Below, piece by piece: positions 8,351-23,044 of a stretch of DNA of 24,000 nt. Where the stretch lies: contig NZ_VCYH01000012.1 in assembly GCF_030464345.1 (NCBI RefSeq), forward strand, positions 30,094 through 54,093. The letters are read 5' to 3'. The position numbers were made by a program, and so were the translations under genes. Every line of letters begins with the position of its first letter. Position 1 is the first letter of the stretch. Under the pieces are notes generated by a model, which saw only the letters and a program-made list of their open reading frames with translations, was not told the origin of the DNA and searched no databases. The stretch comes from Methanoculleus frigidifontis. GTDB taxonomy: Archaea > Halobacteriota > Methanomicrobia > Methanomicrobiales > Methanoculleaceae.

Positions 8351-10231
8351 GTGAACGTAACAGGGATGGTTCTTGCAATGAGGAGCAGGGTTTTTGCAGT
8401 ATGTATGCTGGTCTGCGCCGTCTGCATCGTCGGCGGAGCAGCGGCGGCAGCCCCCGATATCGAGTGGTCGTACAAGTTCGGCGGCAGCGGGACCGACTAC
8501 TGGCCGGATGTCGCGGCGACCGCCGACGGCGGGTCGATCTTCGCAGGGCAGTCAAACTCACAGGATGGGAATATCACCGATCCGATCGGCGGATACGATA
8601 TCGTCCTGCTGAAGCAGGACGCGGACGGCGAGATCGAGTGGCAGAAGAATCTCGGCGGAACACAGAACGAAGCTTCCGGCCGGGTGCGCCAGACTTCCGA
8701 CGGCGGTTTTATTCTTACGGGAACGACAAAGTCGAACGATAACGATGTGAGCGGACTGCACGGCACCTACTATGATATGTGGGTGGCCAAACTCTCCGGG
8801 AGCGGCGGCATCGAGTGGCAGACGTGCCTCGGCGGGAGCCATACCGAGGATGGCATGGATATCCGGCAGACGAGCGACGGCGGGTATATCGTCGCCGGCA
8901 ACACACGCTCGACCGACGGCGACGTGACCGATCGGGTCGGCGGCACCTACGATGCCTGGGTCGTGAAGCTGAACAGCACCGGCGGCATCGAATGGCAGAC
9001 CTGCGTCGGGCGCGATGGAGAGGGCGAGATGGCAAACAGCGTCGTGCAGGCGAGCGACGGGGACTATATCATTGCAGGAAGCTCGAACATCGACAGCCAG
9101 TGGGACGGCCTCGTCGCCAGGCTGAACAGCACCGGCGGCATTGTCTGGGAGAGCTACTTCGGCGGCACCGCCGACGACGGATTCATGGGCGGCCCAGACG
9201 ATGCCGAACTTTCGGGTGTAACTCTGGACGACGACGGAAACGCCATCGTCGTCGGGACGATAACCCTCGAAGAGGAGGGGATATCCGACCACAACGATGT
9301 CTATCTGGTCAAGGTGGACGGTGCGACGGGTGCGGTTGTCCGGGAGATGACCTTCGGCGGGAGCCGGACGGAGTACGGCGTGAGTATCGACCGCACGTCC
9401 GACGGCGGCTATATCGTCGGGGGGACGACAGGTTCCGTCGACGGCGATGTGAGTGGTGTTCACGGCGACTACCCGCCCGCGGGTGATTACTGGATCGTGA
9501 AGCTCGACAGCAGTTTCACCATCGAGTGGCAGAAGTGCGTCGGCGGCACCGGCTCCGACTGCTACCCGAGAGTCGCGCAGACGACCGATGGCGGGTTCGT
9601 CTGCGCCGGCCACACCCGATCGACGGACGGCGACGTGCCGCCGCTCACCTACGGCGGCAACTTTATCTTCTGGATCGTCAAGCTCGCCCCCGAGGGGCTC
9701 CCCGCCCCGCCGGTCTGTGCAAGCCCTGCGGCATCTCCAGACACCATCCCAACCGACACTGACGGCTCGGCCGGGTGGGGCGAGAGCGCCGCCCTCTCGG
9801 TGAACGTCACCGGCGGGAGCACCATCACCTCGGTCGTTGTCGACCTCTCGCCGATCGGCGGGTCGGCATCCGCCGCAATGATTGCGTCGGGCAGCGTCTG
9901 GTCGCTCGCCACCAACGCCTCGACTGCCTCGCCGTTCTCGGGCGGGGCGTACCAGCCGGTCAACCTGACCGTGACCGCCACCGACGCCGCTGCACAGACG
10001 AACACGACCGTCATCGCCCTGACGGTGATCGCCAACGGCGACGTGAACGAGGACGGCAGCGTGACTCTCCCCGACGCCCAGTACCTCGCCCGGTCGGTTC
10101 TCGGCATCCCTGGCTACACGATGCACTCCAACGTCGCCGACGTCTCGGGCGACGGTGCCGCCTCGCTCTACGACGCCGTCTACCTCGCCCGGCACGTCAT
10201 CGGGGTATCCGGCTACGGGACGCTCCACTAA
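8351..10231 (+). CDS. secreted 7-blade beta-propeller repeat protein (SBBP-like repeats) + Ig-like spacer + type-I dockerin
   Basis: The signal peptide is MRSRVFAVCMLVCAVCIVGGAAAAA. There are seven repeats of about 58 aa and two C-terminal Ca-binding dockerin segments. The start is ambiguous: GTG 8351, ATG 8366 or ATG 8378. Confidence 0.85.
   Translation: MNVTGMVLAMRSRVFAVCMLVCAVCIVGGAAAAAPDIEWSYKFGGSGTDYWPDVAATADGGSIFAGQSNSQDGNITDPIGGYDIVLLKQDADGEIEWQKNLGGTQNEASGRVRQTSDGGFILTGTTKSNDNDVSGLHGTYYDMWVAKLSGSGGIEWQTCLGGSHTEDGMDIRQTSDGGYIVAGNTRSTDGDVTDRVGGTYDAWVVKLNSTGGIEWQTCVGRDGEGEMANSVVQASDGDYIIAGSSNIDSQWDGLVARLNSTGGIVWESYFGGTADDGFMGGPDDAELSGVTLDDDGNAIVVGTITLEEEGISDHNDVYLVKVDGATGAVVREMTFGGSRTEYGVSIDRTSDGGYIVGGTTGSVDGDVSGVHGDYPPAGDYWIVKLDSSFTIEWQKCVGGTGSDCYPRVAQTTDGGFVCAGHTRSTDGDVPPLTYGGNFIFWIVKLAPEGLPAPPVCASPAASPDTIPTDTDGSAGWGESAALSVNVTGGSTITSVVVDLSPIGGSASAAMIASGSVWSLATNASTASPFSGGAYQPVNLTVTATDAAAQTNTTVIALTVIANGDVNEDGSVTLPDAQYLARSVLGIPGYTMHSNVADVSGDGAASLYDAVYLARHVIGVSGYGTLH
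8459..9697 (+). repeat. seven tandem ~58-aa (~174-nt) intragenic repeats (propeller blades)
   Basis: The recurring pattern is IEWQ.C.GG....G..I.QTSDGGYI.AG.T.S.DGDV....G..D.W..KL...G. Blades begin at IEWSY, IEWQKN, IEWQTCLG, IEWQTCVG, IVWESY, VVREMT and IEWQKCVG. DNA-level similarity is visible, e.g. ggcggcatcgagtggcagac near 8806 and ggcggcatcgaatggcagac near 8980. Confidence 0.8.
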
Positions 10232-10280: not shown

Positions 10281-11180
10281 GTGAAGATCGGCTATCCCTG
10301 CATCAACCGGAGCATCGCCTGCCGCGGCAACCGGACGTTCCGGCTGGCTTCGTACTCGGAGGAGCGGCTCTTTGCGACGGTCGCAGAGAACCTCCGCTGC
10401 CTTGCAGCGATGCTCCGCTATAACATTGAACATACCCTGCTCTTCTTCCGGATCACCTCCGACCTCGTCCCGTTCGCCTCCCACCCGGTTTGCGCCGCCG
10501 ACTGGCGGGGGCGGTTTGCGGCCGATCTTGCGGCCGTCGGCGAGTACGTCCGGGAGACCGGGACCCGGATCTCGATGCACCCGGACCAGTTCGTCGTCAT
10601 CAACGCCCGGGATTCCGACATAGTCGAACGGAGCGTCGCCGAGCTTTGCTACCATGCCGACCTGCTGGACGCGATGGGGCTTGATACCACCGCGAAGATC
10701 CAGATCCACGTCGGCGGGGTCTACGGCGAGAAGGAACGGAGCCTGGAGCGGTTCGTCCGGGCGTACACGACCCTGGACGAGACTATCCTGCGGCGGCTGG
10801 TCATCGAGAACGACGACCGGCGCTACACCCTCGCCGACTGCCTCCGGGTCCACGACGAGACCGGCGTGCCGGTGCTCTTCGACCGGTTCCACCACGAGGT
10901 GCACTCCTCCGGCGAGAGCCCGCGCGATGCGGTCATCAGCGCTGCCGGGACCTGGCGGGCTGTCGACGGCGTCCCGATGGTCGACTACAGCTCGCAGCAG
11001 CCGGGCGGGCGGCGGGGAAACCACGCAGAGACGATCGACCCGGACAACTTCCGGGCGTTCCTCGCCGAGTCGGCGCCGGTCGACTGCGACATCATGCTCG
11101 AGATAAAGGATAAAGAGAAGAGCGCTCTCCTGGCCGCAGCCATCGCGGCCACGGATCCCCGGTTCGCCGCCCCTAGGTGA
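10281..11180 (+). CDS. uvdE: UV DNA damage endonuclease (UvdE family)
   Basis: The sequence has KIGYPCINRSI, FFRITSDLVPFASH, ISMHPDQF, IQIHVGG, LVIENDD, FDRFHH and MLEIKDKE, typical UvdE TIM-barrel blocks. GTG 10281 is the only start upstream of the conserved N-terminus that does not overlap the preceding gene. Confidence 0.85.
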   Translation: MKIGYPCINRSIACRGNRTFRLASYSEERLFATVAENLRCLAAMLRYNIEHTLLFFRITSDLVPFASHPVCAADWRGRFAADLAAVGEYVRETGTRISMHPDQFVVINARDSDIVERSVAELCYHADLLDAMGLDTTAKIQIHVGGVYGEKERSLERFVRAYTTLDETILRRLVIENDDRRYTLADCLRVHDETGVPVLFDRFHHEVHSSGESPRDAVISAAGTWRAVDGVPMVDYSSQQPGGRRGNHAETIDPDNFRAFLAESAPVDCDIMLEIKDKEKSALLAAAIAATDPRFAAPR

Positions 11181-11598
11181 CCGTGACCTCCAGGCTCGGC
11201 GGCACCAGCGCCGCGTCGATGGCGTGGCAGATCCCGTTCGTGCAGAAGGCGTCCGCCTCGACGATCGGGACGCTGTTGACCGTCACGCCCCTGTCCGAGG
11301 AGCGCACCGTCAGTTCCGTCCCGAGGAGCGACCTGACCATCGAGACATTTTTGAGGGCGTCCAGCGTCCATGTCCCGGGCACGATGTGGTAGATCAGGAT
11401 GATGGCGACCTTGTCCGGGTCGGCGCCGATCTCCCGCATCCGCTCCTCCGGGACGCGTGCAAAGGCGCTGTCTGTCGGCACGAAGACGGTATAGGGCCCT
11501 TCGTTCCGCAGGCGGTTCTCAAGCTCGGCGTCGCGTGCCAGTTTCAAAAACGTGGAAAACCCTTCCGAGTCCTCCAGTGTTGCAAAGATGTTCTTCAT
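11173..11598 (-). CDS. single-domain fasciclin (FAS1) protein, paralog 1 (141 aa), no signal peptide
   Basis: Starts MKNIFATLEDSEGF. H1 is GPYTVFVPTDSAF, the middle block is YHIV and H2 is CTNGICHAID. An SD-like GGAAGGGGGG lies upstream of the ATG (complement of 11596-11598). The 277-aa track ORF is an artefactual upstream extension. Confidence 0.85.
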   Translation of the reverse strand: MKNIFATLEDSEGFSTFLKLARDAELENRLRNEGPYTVFVPTDSAFARVPEERMREIGADPDKVAIILIYHIVPGTWTLDALKNVSMVRSLLGTELTVRSSDRGVTVNSVPIVEADAFCTNGICHAIDAALVPPSLEVTVT

Positions 11599-11644
11599 CT
11601 CATCTTCCCCCCTTCCGGATAGCTGCCCGGTACCGGCGGGGGCG

Positions 11645-11652
11645 TATATATA
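11645..11652 (-). promoter_or_regulatory. TATA box candidate for FAS1 paralog 1
   Basis: tatatata sits directly after the stop of paralog 2, about 47-54 nt upstream of the ATG at 11598. Confidence 0.5.
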
Positions 11653-11653
11653 C

Positions 11654-12088
11654 CTACGCCAGCACCTCCGCCATCTGCGGCATGAGCACGGACTCGATGA
11701 TATGCACCACGCCGTTGTCGCACTCGATGTCGGCCCGCGCGATCCGTGCGTCGTTGACGACAATATCCTCCCCGATGCGGGATATGTCGAGCTCGGCACC
11801 CTGCATCGTCTTGATCGTCGGGTTGCGCATCGAAGGAACCTCGCTTGCAAAGAGCTCGCCGACCACGACGTGCCACCGCAGCATGTCGGCGAGCCGTTCC
11901 GGAGTCTCTTTGAGGGCCTGCAACGCCTCTGCAGGGAGGCTCCTGACCGCCTCATCGCCTGGGACGAAGACGGTGAACGGCCCGCGGTTCCGGAGCATGT
12001 CTTCAAGCCCGGCGATCCGCACGAGGCTCAGAAATTCGCTTACGTTCTCCTCTGTTTCAAGCGTCTCAAGAATTGATGCCATGTCCAT
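11654..12088 (-). CDS. single-domain fasciclin (FAS1) protein, paralog 2 (144 aa), no signal peptide
   Basis: H1 is GPFTVFVPGDEAV, the middle block is WHVV and H2 is CDNGVVHIIE. GGAGG lies upstream. The second ATG at 12082 (MASILETLE) aligns better with the other paralogs. Confidence 0.85.
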   Translation of the reverse strand: MDMASILETLETEENVSEFLSLVRIAGLEDMLRNRGPFTVFVPGDEAVRSLPAEALQALKETPERLADMLRWHVVVGELFASEVPSMRNPTIKTMQGAELDISRIGEDIVVNDARIARADIECDNGVVHIIESVLMPQMAEVLA

Positions 12089-12126
12089 ACTCCTCCAATA
12101 AACGGCTGCCTTCAGCTGCCGCTCCC

Positions 12127-12138
12127 ATATATACTTTT
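12127..12138 (-). promoter_or_regulatory. TATA box candidate for FAS1 paralog 2
   Basis: The mRNA sense reads aaaagtatatat, about 40-50 nt upstream of the ATG. Confidence 0.5.
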
Positions 12139-12212
12139 GTGACTTACGGCAGAATCAGCCCCGGATGCCCGATCGGTCTGCAGATCGTACCGTTCCCGCA
12201 GCCGTCAGACCC

Positions 12213-12638
12213 TCACCAGCGAGGCGCGACAGCCTCCGTCGTCGCCGGGATCAGCACCCGGTTGATGGCGTGGACGACCCCGTTGGTGCACGCGATATCC
12301 GCCTCAGTCACCTCCGCCCCGCCAACCCGGATACGCCCTCCGGCGGCATCGATCGCGAGATCGTCCTCGTGCAGCGTCTCGATCGTCCCGGAAAGATCGC
12401 CGGAAAGCAGCCTGCCCGAGAGGATATGGTGCTTCAGGACCTCGGCGAGCCGGGGCGGCTCCTGCATCAGGTCATCGAGCTGCTCCTGCGGGAACCTGCC
12501 GAACGCCTCGTCGGTCGGGGCAAAGACGGTCAGCGGCCGCTGGCGTGCGAGGACGCTTCCAAGCCCTGCCCGGTTCACGGCGGCGAGGAAGACGGTGAAC
12601 CTGCCGTCCTCCCGTGCCGTCTCGAGGATGTTCTTCAT
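12213..12638 (-). CDS. single-domain fasciclin (FAS1) protein, paralog 3 (141 aa), no signal peptide
   Basis: Starts MKNILETARED. H1 is RPLTVFAPTDEAF, the middle block is HHIL and H2 is CTNGVVHAIN. It lies only 18 nt downstream of paralog 4 with a G-rich SD, so the two are probably co-transcribed. Confidence 0.85.
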   Translation of the reverse strand: MKNILETAREDGRFTVFLAAVNRAGLGSVLARQRPLTVFAPTDEAFGRFPQEQLDDLMQEPPRLAEVLKHHILSGRLLSGDLSGTIETLHEDDLAIDAAGGRIRVGGAEVTEADIACTNGVVHAINRVLIPATTEAVAPRW

Positions 12639-12656
12639 CGCTGTCTCTCCCCCCCT

Positions 12657-13061
12657 TCACCGGGCGGCCGTCTCCACAGCCGCCGGCCTGATAAGGTAGT
12701 CGACGATATGGATGACGCCGTTCGTGGCGGCGATATCCGCCTGGATGATGCGGGCATCCTCCACGGTGAGCTGGCCGGCGTCCGGCGACCAGGCGACGGC
12801 GATCGCATCGCCGCCGACGGTGCCGATCCGCATCGTTCCCTGCTGCCGGATATCGGCCGTGCTTATCCGTGCCCGGACGACATGGTTCTGCATGGCCGGA
12901 CGGAACCGGCCGGAGACCTTGCCGAATGCCTCGTTCGTCGGGGCGAAGACGGTGAACGGCCCTTCGCCGCTCAGCAGATCCTGCAGCCCGGCAGCCCGGA
13001 CGGCGTCGACGAACCGTGTCAGTTCTGCAGCCTCACGGGCAGTTTCGTAGATGTTCTTCAT
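12657..13061 (-). CDS. single-domain fasciclin (FAS1) protein, paralog 4 (134 aa, shortest), no signal peptide
   Basis: Starts MKNIYETAREAA. H1 is GPFTVFAPTNEAF and H2 is ATNGVIHIVD. The segment between H1 and the YH block is shortened (NHVV). GGAGAAG/GGAAGGAG lies upstream. Confidence 0.8.
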   Translation of the reverse strand: MKNIYETAREAAELTRFVDAVRAAGLQDLLSGEGPFTVFAPTNEAFGKVSGRFRPAMQNHVVRARISTADIRQQGTMRIGTVGGDAIAVAWSPDAGQLTVEDARIIQADIAATNGVIHIVDYLIRPAAVETAAR

Positions 13062-13086
13062 GGACTTCTCCTTCCCAGGGGAGGGC

Positions 13087-13094
13087 GTATATCT
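13087..13094 (-). promoter_or_regulatory. TATA box candidate for FAS1 paralogs 4 and 3
   Basis: The mRNA sense reads agatatac, about 26-33 nt upstream of the ATG at 13061. It is the only A/T-rich element in the 57-nt spacer. Confidence 0.4.
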
Positions 13095-13118
13095 GTTGCG
13101 GTCACCCGGGAACGTGCC

Positions 13119-13559
13119 TCATATCCACTTTGCCGTCCGTGCCTCGGCGGCTCTCGGGATGAGCAGGGCGTCGATGACGTGGATATACCCGTTCGAACAC
13201 TCGATGTCGGGCTGGACGATCGTCGCGGTGTTCACCTGGATCGCCCCGCCGGCCTCGCTGATATCGATGTGGTCGCCGAGCAGCGTCTTGATCGACTCCG
13301 CTACCCGCAGGTCGTTGGAAACGAACTTCCCGGCAATGACATGATAGGAGAGTATATCGGTCATGTTCCGCCGGTTTGCCATGATCTCGTTGAAGACCGC
13401 CTCGGAGACTCCGGTTATCGCCTCATCCATCGGCGCAAAAAGCGTATACGGCCCCTCATGCGCGAGCGTCTGTTCCATCCCCGCTTCCCGGATGACCCCG
13501 AGAAGTTTCGTAAATCTCCCGTCGGCCTCTGCAGTCTCGATGATATTCTTCATCTCCAT
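13119..13559 (-). CDS. single-domain fasciclin (FAS1) protein, paralog 5 (146 aa), no signal peptide
   Basis: Starts MEMKNIIETAEADGRF. H1 is GPYTLFAPMDEAI, the middle block is YHVI and H2 is CSNGYIHVID. An alternative ATG is at 13553. Confidence 0.85.
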   Translation of the reverse strand: MEMKNIIETAEADGRFTKLLGVIREAGMEQTLAHEGPYTLFAPMDEAITGVSEAVFNEIMANRRNMTDILSYHVIAGKFVSNDLRVAESIKTLLGDHIDISEAGGAIQVNTATIVQPDIECSNGYIHVIDALLIPRAAEARTAKWI

Positions 13560-13594
13560 ACCCCCGGACGTGACGCTCTCTCTTCTGTCATCTT

Positions 13595-13603
13595 CTATAT
13601 AAG
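13595..13603 (-). promoter_or_regulatory. TATA box candidate for FAS1 paralog 5
   Basis: The mRNA sense reads cttatatag, about 40 nt upstream of the ATG at 13559. Confidence 0.5.
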
Positions 13604-13630
13604 GGCTTGTGAGACGCCAGGCCGGGCGGC

Positions 13631-14059
13631 CTACCGGGGCAGGATCTGGGCCGCGGACTGTGTGAGCAGCACGGTGTCGATGGCGTGGCAGACGCCGTTT
13701 CCTGCCTCGATATCGGCGGCGACGACGTGCGCATCGTTCACCATCACCCGGTCGGCTGACGCCTCTATCCTGAGATCCGCACCCTGCAACGTGGCGACCG
13801 CCGATCGCTCCATAAGGTCGTTTGCGGTCAGCCGCTCCGGGACGATGTGATAGGTCAGCAGGTCGGCCGCACGCTGCCGGCTGTGGACGATATCGTGCAT
13901 GACCTGCTCCGGGATGCCGCCGAACGCGGCATCGGTCGGGGCAAAGAGGGTGAACGGTCCCGCCCCCTGCAGGATGCTCTCAATCTCCGCCGCCCGGACG
14001 AGTTCGAGCAGGCGTGAAAATCTGCCCTCATCCTGCAGCGTATCGATGATGTTCTGCAT
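13631..14059 (-). CDS. single-domain fasciclin (FAS1) protein, paralog 6 (142 aa), no signal peptide
   Basis: Starts MQNIIDTLQDEGRF. H1 is GPFTLFAPTDAAF, the middle block is YHIV and H2 is AGNGVCHAID. GGAGG lies 7 nt upstream of the ATG. Confidence 0.85.
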   Translation of the reverse strand: MQNIIDTLQDEGRFSRLLELVRAAEIESILQGAGPFTLFAPTDAAFGGIPEQVMHDIVHSRQRAADLLTYHIVPERLTANDLMERSAVATLQGADLRIEASADRVMVNDAHVVAADIEAGNGVCHAIDTVLLTQSAAQILPR

Positions 14060-14072
14060 CGCACACCTCCGG

Positions 14073-14079
14073 AAAAAAA
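14073..14079 (-). terminator. T7 tract between FAS1 paralogs 7 and 6
   Basis: The mRNA sense reads ctcatttttttccggagg within the 42-nt spacer. It could attenuate read-through from paralog 7 into paralog 6. Confidence 0.3.
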
Positions 14080-14101
14080 TGAGATCCAGATGTCCCCGGC
14101 C

Positions 14102-14530
14102 TCACCGCGGTATCGGAATTTCTGCCTTCTTTGGAACCAGTACCGTGTCGATGATGTGGCAGACGCCGTTGGTGCACTCGATGTCCGCCTGCGTGACCCG
14201 GGCATCGTTCACCCGCACCGTCCCCTGCGACGCGTCGATGGAGAGGTCTTCGCCCTCCAGCGTCTGGACCGAGTTCTGCTGCATGATATCCTGCGCCATC
14301 ATCTTCCCGGAGACCACGTGGTACTTCAGGATCGACTGCAGCAGGTCTTTGTCCTTGAGCGCGCTCTGCAGCTGGTCTCTCGAGAGCTTGTTGAAGGCGC
14401 TGTTCGTCGGGGCGAAGACCGTGAACGGCCCCTGTGAACTCAGGGTGTCGGTCAGCCCGGCGGCGTCGATCGCTTTGAGGAGCGTGTTGAACCGCCCATC
14501 ATCCTTTGCCGTCTCAATGATATTCTTCAT
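14102..14530 (-). CDS. single-domain fasciclin (FAS1) protein, paralog 7 (142 aa), no signal peptide
   Basis: Starts MKNIIETAKDDGRF. H1 is GPFTVFAPTNSAF, the middle block is YHVV and H2 is CTNGVCHIID. AGGAGGG lies upstream. Confidence 0.85.
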   Translation of the reverse strand: MKNIIETAKDDGRFNTLLKAIDAAGLTDTLSSQGPFTVFAPTNSAFNKLSRDQLQSALKDKDLLQSILKYHVVSGKMMAQDIMQQNSVQTLEGEDLSIDASQGTVRVNDARVTQADIECTNGVCHIIDTVLVPKKAEIPIPR

Positions 14531-14572
14531 TGCTCATTCCCTCCTGGGGCGGTCCGGTTCCTCTGCCGCTCA

Positions 14573-14587
14573 GATATTTAAAAATTT
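14573..14587 (-). promoter_or_regulatory. TATA box candidate for FAS1 paralog 7 (and possibly 6)
   Basis: The mRNA sense reads aaatttttaaatatc, about 45-55 nt upstream of the ATG at 14530. Confidence 0.5.
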
Positions 14588-14617
14588 GTATACGCCGAGT
14601 AACTGCTCCGTGCTCGC

Positions 14618-14663
14618 CGATACGCCCGATTTGGCAGACGGCTTGTCGGACAGGCGCGTATCG
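14618..14663. other. composite inverted repeat (potential RNA stem-loop) in the 197-nt spacer downstream of FAS1 paralog 8
   Basis: CGATACGC (14618-14625) pairs with GCGTATCG (14656-14663). An inner pair is CCGA (14626-14629) with TCGG (14646-14649). Confidence 0.3.
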
Positions 14664-14727
14664 ATACAGAGAGAAGAGTGTGGGTGTTTCTTCCCACAAC
14701 GCACCCTTCCGGCCGGCAGTCTGTATC

Positions 14728-15174
14728 TCACTGGCCGGTCTTGGCGTAGGCCTCGTAGGCCTGTGAGAGGGTTGCGAATGGCACTTTGTCGATGACGTGG
14801 ATGATCCCGTTGTCGGCCCCGATGTCCTGGTCGATGACCTTTCCGGTCTCGATCTGGTAGCCTTCGTCGGTCTTCATCACCTCGAGGTTCACCCCCTCGA
14901 CGGTCTGGATGATCTTCTTCTCCGCAAGGTCGTCGATCGAGTACTTGTGCTCGCCGATCTGCATAAAGTCGAAGAGGTGCCAGAGCATCTGTTTGTCGTT
15001 TAAGATCATCGACCGGTTCGGCTCCGGGATCTCGTCCCAGGCCGAATCGACCGGCACGATGAGCGTCATCGGTCCCGCGCTCTTGAGCATCTCCTCCTTG
15101 TCGATCGACTGGACGACCTCCAGGAACTTCCCGAACCGCCCGTCATTCTTCAGGGTCTCGAAGATATTTGCCAT
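14728..15174 (-). CDS. single-domain fasciclin (FAS1) protein, paralog 8 (148 aa, most divergent), no signal peptide
   Basis: Starts MANIFETLKNDGRF. H1 is degenerate (GPMTLIVPVDSAW) and H2 is ADNGIIHVID. Its codons are visibly more A/T-rich than the other copies. GGAGG lies upstream. Confidence 0.8.
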   Translation of the reverse strand: MANIFETLKNDGRFGKFLEVVQSIDKEEMLKSAGPMTLIVPVDSAWDEIPEPNRSMILNDKQMLWHLFDFMQIGEHKYSIDDLAEKKIIQTVEGVNLEVMKTDEGYQIETGKVIDQDIGADNGIIHVIDKVPFATLSQAYEAYAKTGQ

Positions 15175-15215: not shown

Positions 15216-15226
15216 TAATATATATT
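15216..15226 (-). promoter_or_regulatory. TATA box candidate for FAS1 paralog 8
   Basis: The mRNA sense reads aatatatatta, about 45-50 nt upstream of the ATG at 15174. A second A/T block lies at 15229-15239. Confidence 0.5.
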
Positions 15227-22971: not shown

Positions 22972-23044
22972 GCTGCTATAGTGTAGGGGCCAATCATGTC
23001 GGCCTTTCACGCCGACGACTGGGGTTCAAATCCCCATAGCAGCA
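22972..23044 (+). tRNA. tRNA-Glu (anticodon UUC), 73 nt, CCA not encoded
   Basis: Hand-folded cloverleaf. Acceptor stem GCTGCTA/TAGCAGC has 7 bp. Anticodon stem TCGGC/GCCGA has loop CTTTCAC (U33, TTC, A37). T arm is TGGGG-TTCAAAT-CCCCA. The discriminator is A. The D arm has 3 pairs plus one mismatch. Confidence 0.9.

Follow-up and report, generated by a model that had tools for sequence, protein, structure and literature searches.

A window of 24,000 nucleotides (nt) from the genome of Methanoculleus frigidifontis (contig NZ_VCYH01000012.1, positions 30,094 to 54,093; coordinates below are those of the window unless a contig is named) carries, at 11173-15174 on the reverse strand, an array of eight tandem genes whose products each contain a single fasciclin (FAS1) domain and no export signal. 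What is new about this locus is that four to nine diverged, signal-less FAS1 paralogs occupy one conserved site in every Methanoculleus-type genome examined, and that the array proteins have their own C-terminal tail and, frequently, a pair of cysteines that is likely to lie cross-strand. Signal-less stand-alone FAS1 proteins as such are already known, and the array is an expansion of that family, not a new kind of system. We read the eight genes as a lineage-expanded and diversified set of cytoplasmic clamp or adaptor modules, resembling the cyanobacterial protein CupS, in which each paralog would have its own partner or condition, and give this reading a probability of roughly 45%.

The genes are numbered c1 to c8 by increasing coordinate, c8 being the first gene of the array and c1 the last. 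In a Pfam profile search all eight products match the Fasciclin model (PF02469; 123 positions, cut-off 22 bits) with 73-147 bits and E-values of 3e-20 to 5e-43, each alignment spanning model positions 2 to 120-123. From the 5' end, these are c8 (14728-15174, 148 amino acids (aa), 73 bits), c7 (14102-14530, 142 aa, 147 bits; the most conserved copy), c6 (13631-14059, 142 aa, 116.5 bits), c5 (13119-13559, 146 aa, 113.7 bits; 144 aa from an alternative start at 13553), c4 (12657-13061, 134 aa, 90.5 bits), c3 (12213-12638, 141 aa, 116.5 bits), c2 (11654-12088, 144 aa, 113.9 bits; 142 aa from an alternative start at 12082) and c1 (11173-11598, 141 aa, 108.5 bits). No second domain beside Fasciclin was found in any of the eight by this search. 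An earlier note on this DNA had described eight tandem open reading frames (ORFs) of 134-148 aa on one strand, each a single FAS1 domain, and had proposed a search with PF02469 as a check; the ORF coordinates and the matches over the whole model bear it out. NCBIfam assigned no family to any of the eight copies, giving a single sub-threshold chance match, and c8 is 100% identical to a protein of Methanoculleus sp. FWC-SCC1, whose NCBI annotation is “fasciclin domain-containing protein”. Anti-phage defence was considered as a function and rejected, since PADLOC models gave no match to any copy at E<=0.01. The proteins have a mass of about 15 kDa and a pI of 4.4-6.1 (acidic to near-neutral), and their pairwise identity is 22-46% (mean 35%), with c8 as the outlier, in agreement with the earlier estimate that most pairs are well under half identical.

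The H1 (GP[FYLM]T[VL]F.P) and H2 (NG..H.I[DEN]) motifs are found in 8/8 copies. The YH dyad occurs as YH, WH or HH in six of the eight, as NH in c4 and as FM in c8, where the sequence DFMQI is conserved genus-wide, so that the earlier claim that the motifs are kept throughout holds for H1 and H2 but not for the YH block, which is gone in c8. The shortened segment between H1 and YH previously remarked on in c4 is real, and is caused by an in-frame deletion of 11 codons in helix alpha5 relative to the 145-aa ortholog in the genome GCA_963680175 (L089), where the alignment has an 11-residue gap. Copy c8 does have an altered H1 (GPMTLIVPVDSAW) and the lowest GC content of the array (0.575), as had been noted, though only marginally, c5 (0.583) and c7 (0.597) being little higher. 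It is not degenerating, however: c8 represents a conserved genus-wide subfamily with a ratio of non-synonymous to synonymous substitution (dN/dS) between orthologs of 0.21-0.32. Its signature motifs, among them the C-terminal tail (VPFxTLSQAYEAY), are conserved.

The FAS1 domain begins at residues 1-4 in all copies. In c2 to c8 there is no ATG, GTG or TTG in-frame between the start and the preceding upstream stop (1-140 codons), and for c1 the sole upstream extension reads through c2 in another frame and is rich in Arg and Ser. An N-terminal hydrophobic segment and a C-terminal anchor were looked for in all eight copies and neither is present, nor do the array proteins have a Sec/Tat signal or a lipobox of the MPB70/MPB83 type. 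Thus the view that there is no room for a Sec/Tat signal, lipobox or transmembrane anchor survives a check of the alternative starts, from which no export signal emerged. Orthologs in six other genomes all begin at the same MKNI/MANI position, without a hydrophobic extension. A separate FAS1 protein of 194 aa on a Methanoculleus-type contig (L174, 17371-17955, reverse strand), about 6 kb from the array there, has a lipobox-like signal (MQTNCALFITVLAIGAAVLICGC, …LICGC), so that for exporting a FAS1 protein the genus does employ a classical signal. This exported-type protein has five N-X-S/T sequons, against 0-1 in the array copies. From these features of the sequences we infer that the array proteins remain cytoplasmic.

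The array lies directly downstream of a DUF447 gene in every Methanoculleus-type genome or contig examined. It has four FAS1 copies in L174 (a metagenome contig whose c8 ortholog is shared with a 2.48-Mb Methanoculleus contig) and in GCA_900101055 (L175), four plus a PAS gene within the array in a Methanomicrobiaceae metagenome-assembled genome (MAG; L005), five plus a PAS gene within the array in M. taiwanensis (L001), six in L089, eight in the window and nine in the metagenome contig L091. Among the genomes sampled, those resembling M. marisnigri and M. bourgensis have the four-copy core. In identity matrices and neighbour-joining trees, the latter carrying no support values, the window copies group with the collinear orthologs of other genomes, six of which were compared in full, and not with each other. 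Every genome compared has the c8 orthogroup, and most have those of c5 and c1. The c7 orthogroup is present in four of the six others (not in the four-copy L174 and L175), those of c2 and c6 in two others each, and orthologs of c3 and c4 are confined to the closest relative, L089; one orthogroup of the other genomes has no member in the window. Identities to orthologs are 93, 78, 77 and 70% for c7; 70% (L001), 73% (L005) and 65% (L091) for c1, which has orthologs in L174 and L175 too; 79% (L089), 56% (L001) and 58% (L005) for c5, with which the second genes of the L174 and L175 arrays group; 77% (L089) and 61% (L091) for c6, absent from L001 and L005; 59% (L001) and 47% (L091) for c2; and 77% (L089) for c3. 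Orthologs of c8 with 54-84% identity occur in M. chikugoensis, M. bourgensis, M. sediminis, M. oceani, M. thermophilus and other Methanoculleus, and beyond the genus the next-best matches fall to about 30%; as judged from these matches, c8 is a conserved subfamily, genus-wide and essentially confined to Methanoculleus. Its nearest relatives outside the genus (P0161-P0188) are of about 169 aa, start with MANIFETARAE, have about 30% identity and carry an insertion of about 35 residues between beta-strands. The 5' end of the array, with c8 beside DUF447, is constant in every genome, and the middle, the 3' end and the right-hand flank are variable.

Between orthologs dN/dS is 0.09-0.42 overall, lowest for c7 (0.09-0.19) and highest for c4 (0.42), c3 (0.38) and c6 (0.34), with values of 0.19 for c1, 0.31 for c2 and 0.21-0.29 for c5. 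A direct-repeat search found no repeat between copies of more than 75% identity over the whole length, or of more than 79% for motif blocks of 26-28 nt. Recent duplication, gene conversion and cassette switching are ruled out, the similarity between copies being only at the level of motifs (60-79%). The comparisons indicate that the paralogs are ancient and independently maintained under purifying selection, and a recent strain-specific amplification with pseudogenisation is refuted by the collinear orthologs, the low dN/dS and the lack of any DNA-level repeat. This is what the earlier note had proposed in calling the genes an old, maintained family, and the comparison of synteny and copy number that it called for yields the same site genus-wide, with neither strain-specific duplication nor pseudogenised copies.

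It could still be argued that the copies are largely redundant products of birth and death, drifting toward loss and having no paralog-specific function. The labile copy number (4, 4, 4 plus PAS, 5 plus PAS, 6, 8 and 9) would fit this, as would the deletion in c4 together with its top dN/dS, the relaxed values of c3 and c6 (0.34-0.38) and the restriction of c3 and c4 orthologs to a single other genome. Each of the eight reading frames is, however, intact and preceded by a Shine-Dalgarno sequence, every dN/dS is well below 1, the paralogs are older than speciation and still collinear, c8 is a genus-wide conserved subfamily that has re-specialised, and 22-46% identity without pseudogenes is unlike neutral decay, which makes redundancy a very improbable explanation.

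AlphaFold2 (AF2) models were made for c7 and c8 (predicted local distance difference test scores, pLDDT, of 83.6 and 84.9) and have the full FAS1 topology, with helix alpha1 from residue 4. Against solved FAS1 domains the c7 model gives template modelling (TM) scores of 0.86-0.90 and root-mean-square deviations (rmsd) of 1.2-1.6 A in Foldseek. Fdp of Rhodobacter sphaeroides, reportedly an adhesion-related protein, is by sequence the most similar stand-alone protein of solved structure, and is encoded by a single gene, not an array. It is a single FAS1 domain of 137 residues (PDB 1W7D/1W7E), with an E-value of 5e-31 and 44% identity to c7. MPB70/MPT70 and MPB83 of Mycobacterium (PDB 1NYO; E 3.5e-16 to c7) are likewise single-FAS1 prokaryotic proteins, but they carry an N-terminal signal or an LAGC lipobox for secretion or lipid anchoring, and the array proteins have neither. 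The best structural match is to the fourth FAS1 domain (FAS1-4) of TGFBIp/periostin (PDB 2VXP, 5NV6, 5YJH; TM 0.86-0.90, rmsd 1.5 A, 36-39% identity, H1 and H2 in common); there, four tandem domains make up one secreted polypeptide that binds matrix and integrins, whereas in the array each domain is a signal-less product of its own.

The nearest parallel in architecture is CupS (Tll0220/Sll1735-type; PDB 2MXA and 6TJV chain Q), a signal-less, stand-alone single-FAS1 protein of 16 kDa whose domain begins at residue 1-2, as in the array proteins. CupS is 41-42% identical to c7, with residue 1 aligned to residue 1, and in its complex-bound form in NDH-1MS it superposes on the c7 model with TM 0.87 and an rmsd of 1.2 A. 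It caps CupA on the cytoplasmic side of the cyanobacterial NDH-1MS complex, and its helical lid closes on the beta-sheet upon binding the helical lobes of CupA (PMC6981117). The red-algal phycobilisome linkers LRC6 and LR9 (PDB 5Y6P, 6KGX, 7EZX) also use FAS1 as a protein-docking module inside a cell compartment; the c7 model has TM 0.81-0.87 to LRC6 and LR9 of 5Y6P and 0.63 to LR9 of 6KGX. In these eukaryotic plastid proteins FAS1 is embedded in longer linkers (253-362 aa), whereas the array FAS1 proteins stand alone and belong to a methanogen. A 2018 review presents FAS1 as an extracellular adhesion domain, and the earlier note had held that characterised FAS1 proteins are all extracellular and that cytoplasmic copies do not fit the known role; CupS (41% identity to c7) and the phycobilisome linkers contradict this. 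Our literature search found no paper characterising archaeal FAS1 proteins. CupS and the phycobilisome linkers make up a small group of FAS1 proteins that work inside the cell, to which the locus would add a clear archaeal example.

CupS is encoded by one gene and is functionally linked with CupA and NdhF3/NdhD3, in contrast to the 4-9 diverged paralogs of Methanoculleus with their C-terminal tail and often an H2 Cys pair. No cupA or ndh gene lies in the window, and none is recurrent beside 24 loci of signal-less FAS1 genes. Because the association with cupA and ndhF3/ndhD3 is absent, the array proteins are not CupS orthologs, although they share its architectural class. To our knowledge methanogens lack NDH-1MS, and for this reason the partners cannot be CupA/NDH-1MS. 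In the reading that we favour, the array proteins would stay in the cytoplasm as small binding modules, and the helical lid (alpha1-alpha3) would close against the beta-sheet onto the helices of a partner other than CupA/NDH-1MS, as CupS does on CupA. Surface residues and C-terminal tails vary among the paralogs, each of which would act on partners or under conditions of its own.

Relatives were sought with a hidden Markov model (HMM) built from the eight copies, run against ORFs from 79 loci in genomes and 80 in metagenomes; as one of the patterns used to scan for loci was the N-terminal MKNIIETA, these scans are biased to signal-less forms and give no frequency. The closest relatives outside the genus are of 132-137 aa with 54-62% identity and start with MKNI[VIL]ET. 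Many of the relatives in the scanned loci have the ATG at HMM position 1 with no possible extension. Signal-less forms occur in Methanofollis, Methanotrichaceae, Methanomethylovorans, Bathyarchaeia, Thermoprotei, Armatimonadota, several phyla of the candidate phyla radiation (CPR), cyanobacteria and some Gammaproteobacteria, and clear signal peptides or lipoboxes occur in proteobacterial, planctomycete, acidobacterial and Methanoregulaceae relatives. Copy c7 is the one most like the single-copy signal-less FAS1 proteins of other orders. Judged by these reading frames, FAS1 proteins with one domain and no signal are widespread, and in many bacterial and archaeal phyla it is they that stand nearest to c7. 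Among 1.84 billion cluster representatives searched, 33,618 clusters matched; the top 150 are all multi-domain, and this search gives no unbiased frequency of signal-less forms either.

Three tandem signal-less single-FAS1 genes (138, 134 and 136 aa) lie at 830-2666 of a Microcoleus MAG (L015), which indicates that small arrays of signal-less FAS1 occur in cyanobacteria too. Two FAS1 genes stand in tandem in Methanotrichaceae: the first encodes a signal-less protein of 133 aa, and the longest reading of the second (L086 2710-3198, L085 8508-8957), from a TTG start, has a short, hydrophobic, lipobox-like N-terminus (LYALLISTMLLVGMC…); this tandem may be a pair of one signal-less and one exported protein. 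A gene of the SOUL haem-binding family (PF04832) adjoins a single-FAS1 gene in five unrelated lineages (Methanotrichaceae, Bathyarchaeota, Nomurabacteria, Saccharibacteria and an activated-sludge contig), at L085 7028-8402, L039 969-2264, L011 9161-10399, L043 10001-11019 and L165 140-1269. Both proteins are signal-less in L039 and L043 and both have signal peptides in L165, and in L085 and L011 the SOUL protein is membrane-anchored N-terminally.

These neighbours bear on a different function, in which the array proteins would carry or chaperone small molecules of a hydrophobic or tetrapyrrole type in the cytoplasm, the tunnel between lid and sheet holding a ligand to which each paralog is tuned. 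The precedent here is AstaP of green algae (PDB 8C18, 22IY, 9WM8), also a single-FAS1 protein, with 29-34% identity to c7 and TM 0.76-0.78 to its model (34% and 0.78 for AstaPo1); AstaP has a signal peptide, glycosylation and flanking tails, whereas the array proteins are signal-less. It clamps a carotenoid between the helical jaw and the beta-sheet, which shows that one FAS1 domain is enough to surround a long hydrophobic ligand, and many FAS1 proteins retain the tunnel (PMC10147662). Cyanobacterial SynAstaP, however, has a near-identical tunnel and binds no carotenoid (PMC10147662), so that the presence of the tunnel does not predict ligand binding. Carotenoid binding by AstaP is a derived trait. 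Ligand carriage would fit the SOUL adjacency, in which export status is matched in three of the five lineages, the placement of the array beside cofactor-biosynthesis genes (the operon of Dus-like, CitG and DUF447 genes and the cfb cluster for F430), and the presence of ALAD, an enzyme of tetrapyrrole biosynthesis, within about 2.3 kb in L088. The SOUL adjacency is nevertheless limited to about five of about 65 loci, the 24-kb window has no SOUL gene, and the synteny with cofactor genes may be mere conserved gene order within one family; on balance we consider ligand carriage unlikely. CupS and AstaP are the sole mechanistic precedents for the stand-alone FAS1 architecture, and of the two we favour protein clamping because CupS is the most similar signal-less protein of known function and because the ligand binding of AstaP is derived and not shared by SynAstaP.

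All array copies have an extra C-terminal tail of 8-15 aa (P-x-x-[AVL]-E-...; for example c7 134-142 and c8 131-148), which the single-copy signal-less relatives of 132-133 aa do not have; in the c8 model it forms an additional helix of low confidence. The motif C-x-N-G-x-C-H is found at the H2 beta-turn in 15 of 40 Methanoculleus array proteins, 12 of the same 40 keeping only the first Cys and four only the second, and nearly all Cys residues of array proteins sit at these two positions. In the window the pair occurs in c7 (C-T-N-G-V-C-H, residues 119-125) and c1 (C-T-N-G-I-C-H), and elsewhere at L001, L005, L089, L091, L174, L175, L003 and L088; it is also present in Methanofollis, and absent from the cyanobacterial and Armatimonadota signal-less relatives, the cyanobacterial ones having Ser or Ala instead. 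The two residues are likely to form a cross-strand pair beside the invariant His, and may be a redox or metal site.

The tail also invites the suggestion that the paralogs form an intracellular hetero-oligomer together, for instance through their C-termini. Its presence in every array copy and not in the single-copy relatives is consistent with this, as are the enrichment of group-specific positions in the tail (three of eight) and the fact that several copies, four at the minimum, are always found together. A range of 4-9 copies, with whole orthogroups lost between species, is a poor fit to a fixed stoichiometry, and the separate promoters described below point to differential and not stoichiometric expression. 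Joint assembly of the paralogs therefore seems very unlikely to us, the more so since no FAS1-FAS1 interaction had been reported by the time of the 2018 review.

That last point, together with several others, weighs against the interpretation of the array as clamp or adaptor modules as well. The adaptor mechanism rests wholly on the analogy with CupS. The group-specific conserved positions amount to eight sites, too few to define a binding surface, and 107 neighbour ORFs of the 24 signal-less loci, compared with Pfam, include no universal partner family, SOUL being the sole notable recurrent one. Methanoculleus fasciclin-domain genes are upregulated when syntrophic flocs are disrupted by shaking or stirring, which as regulated expression speaks for the clamp or adaptor reading, and which the authors interpreted as adhesion-related (PMC12008871); the term “fasciclin” is absent from the supplements of that paper, and the regulated genes can not be mapped to array members. 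A fasciclin protein of Methanosaeta concilii was detected in the extracellular polymeric substances (EPS) of granular sludge (PMC6367495).

These last two reports could be taken to mean that the array proteins leave the cell without a signal peptide, through vesicles, lysis or moonlighting, and act in adhesion or aggregation outside it. The Methanotrichaceae tandem, in which a signal-less copy stands beside one possibly bearing a short lipobox-like leader, and database names of the form “surface protein with fasciclin repeats” would be in line with this. Those names are automatic COG labels, however, and the array proteins lack any kind of signal, a hydrophobic N-terminal segment and a C-terminal anchor included, while the genus puts a lipobox-type signal and sequons on a separate, exported FAS1 protein and has 0-1 sequon in the array copies. 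We know of no unconventional export pathway established in methanogens. The EPS extract also contained Mcr and other cytoplasmic enzymes (PMC6367495), and all in all we regard export by such a route as decidedly unlikely.

A broader and quite improbable extension of the clamp interpretation is that signal-less FAS1 proteins are an unrecognised, ancient intracellular clamp system, in which paralogs each carry or hand over a different hydrophobic or tetrapyrrole-type cofactor or dock on a different membrane-bound energy-converting complex. It is suggested by the SOUL adjacency in other anaerobes and CPR, the placement beside cofactor genes, the methanogen-specific, likely cross-strand Cys pair at the H2 turn as a possible redox or metal switch, and the CupS precedent. 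If it were true, intracellular binding, and not adhesion, would be an original role of the FAS1 fold, and the battery of 4-9 differentially expressed paralogs in Methanoculleus would be its most expanded form. In any case the label “uncharacterized surface protein with fasciclin repeats” is probably wrong for the signal-less class, and the discovery of partners or ligands would make it possible to give a function to the thousands of proteins that carry it.

Each of the eight copies has a GGAGG-like Shine-Dalgarno sequence upstream, and a pattern search places a TATA-like box 37-54 nt upstream of the ATG in five of them, in keeping with the earlier observation of a Shine-Dalgarno for each copy and a TATA box for most. 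On the reverse strand, these boxes are at 15219-15226 for c8 (AATATATA, 45-52 nt upstream of the ATG), 14575-14582 for c7 (TTTAAATA, 45-52 nt), 13596-13603 for c5 (CTTATATA, 37-44 nt), 12128-12135 for c2 (AGTATATA, 40-47 nt) and 11645-11652 for c1 (TATATATA, 47-54 nt). The pattern WTTATATA with at most one mismatch has 17 matches in the 24-kb window, compared with 2.6 expected. As c6 follows c7 after 42 nt and has no TATA-like box, it is probably co-transcribed with c7, and c3, only 18 nt downstream of c4, is probably co-transcribed with c4. From the promoter-like boxes and these short spacings, it is likely that the array comprises about five or six transcription units. A scan for sigma-70 promoters and intrinsic terminators gave no excess over shuffled sequences and is inapplicable to archaea, and an Rfam scan of the window found only a tRNA at 22972-23044 and nothing inside the array. 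A large antisense ORF (12165-13850, forward strand) runs across the array and is most likely a high-GC artefact.

Upstream of the array, on the same strand, are Dus-like, CitG-like and DUF447 genes, and beyond them the cfb cluster for coenzyme F430. Downstream is a convergent UvdE gene on the forward strand, the 3' end of which overlaps that of c1 by 8 nt (11173-11180). On its right-hand side the array borders on UvdE in most Methanoculleus genomes, with exceptions: in L089 a 2179-aa DUF2341/Big_2/PEGA protein takes its place, and in L091 AHSA1, MarR and Lon genes lie in between. The PAS genes of L001 (11283-12845, 520 aa) and L005 (12153-13106, 317 aa) occupy the position that c4 and c3 have in the window, and their products have PAS-family domain matches only, apart from one further Pfam entry, not listed, in L001. 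Signalling genes flank single FAS1 copies too, namely STAS/SpoIIE/HATPase_c_2 in Methanofollis (L003) and a response regulator with a PAS histidine kinase in L088. Farther downstream in the window are genes for a dockerin-bearing secreted protein, an HhH-GPD glycosylase and a large sensor protein with response-regulator, GAF, PAS and HATPase domains, and an ORF of 520 aa at 1342-2901 on the reverse strand has no Pfam match at E<=1e-4. The dockerin-bearing protein (8351-10231, forward strand, 626 aa) has an N-terminal hydrophobic leader, repeated “(S/T)DGG(Y/F)I..G.T.S.DGD(V/I)…IEWQ” units and a C-terminal type-I dockerin (E 1.5e-7), which is unusual in a methanogen.

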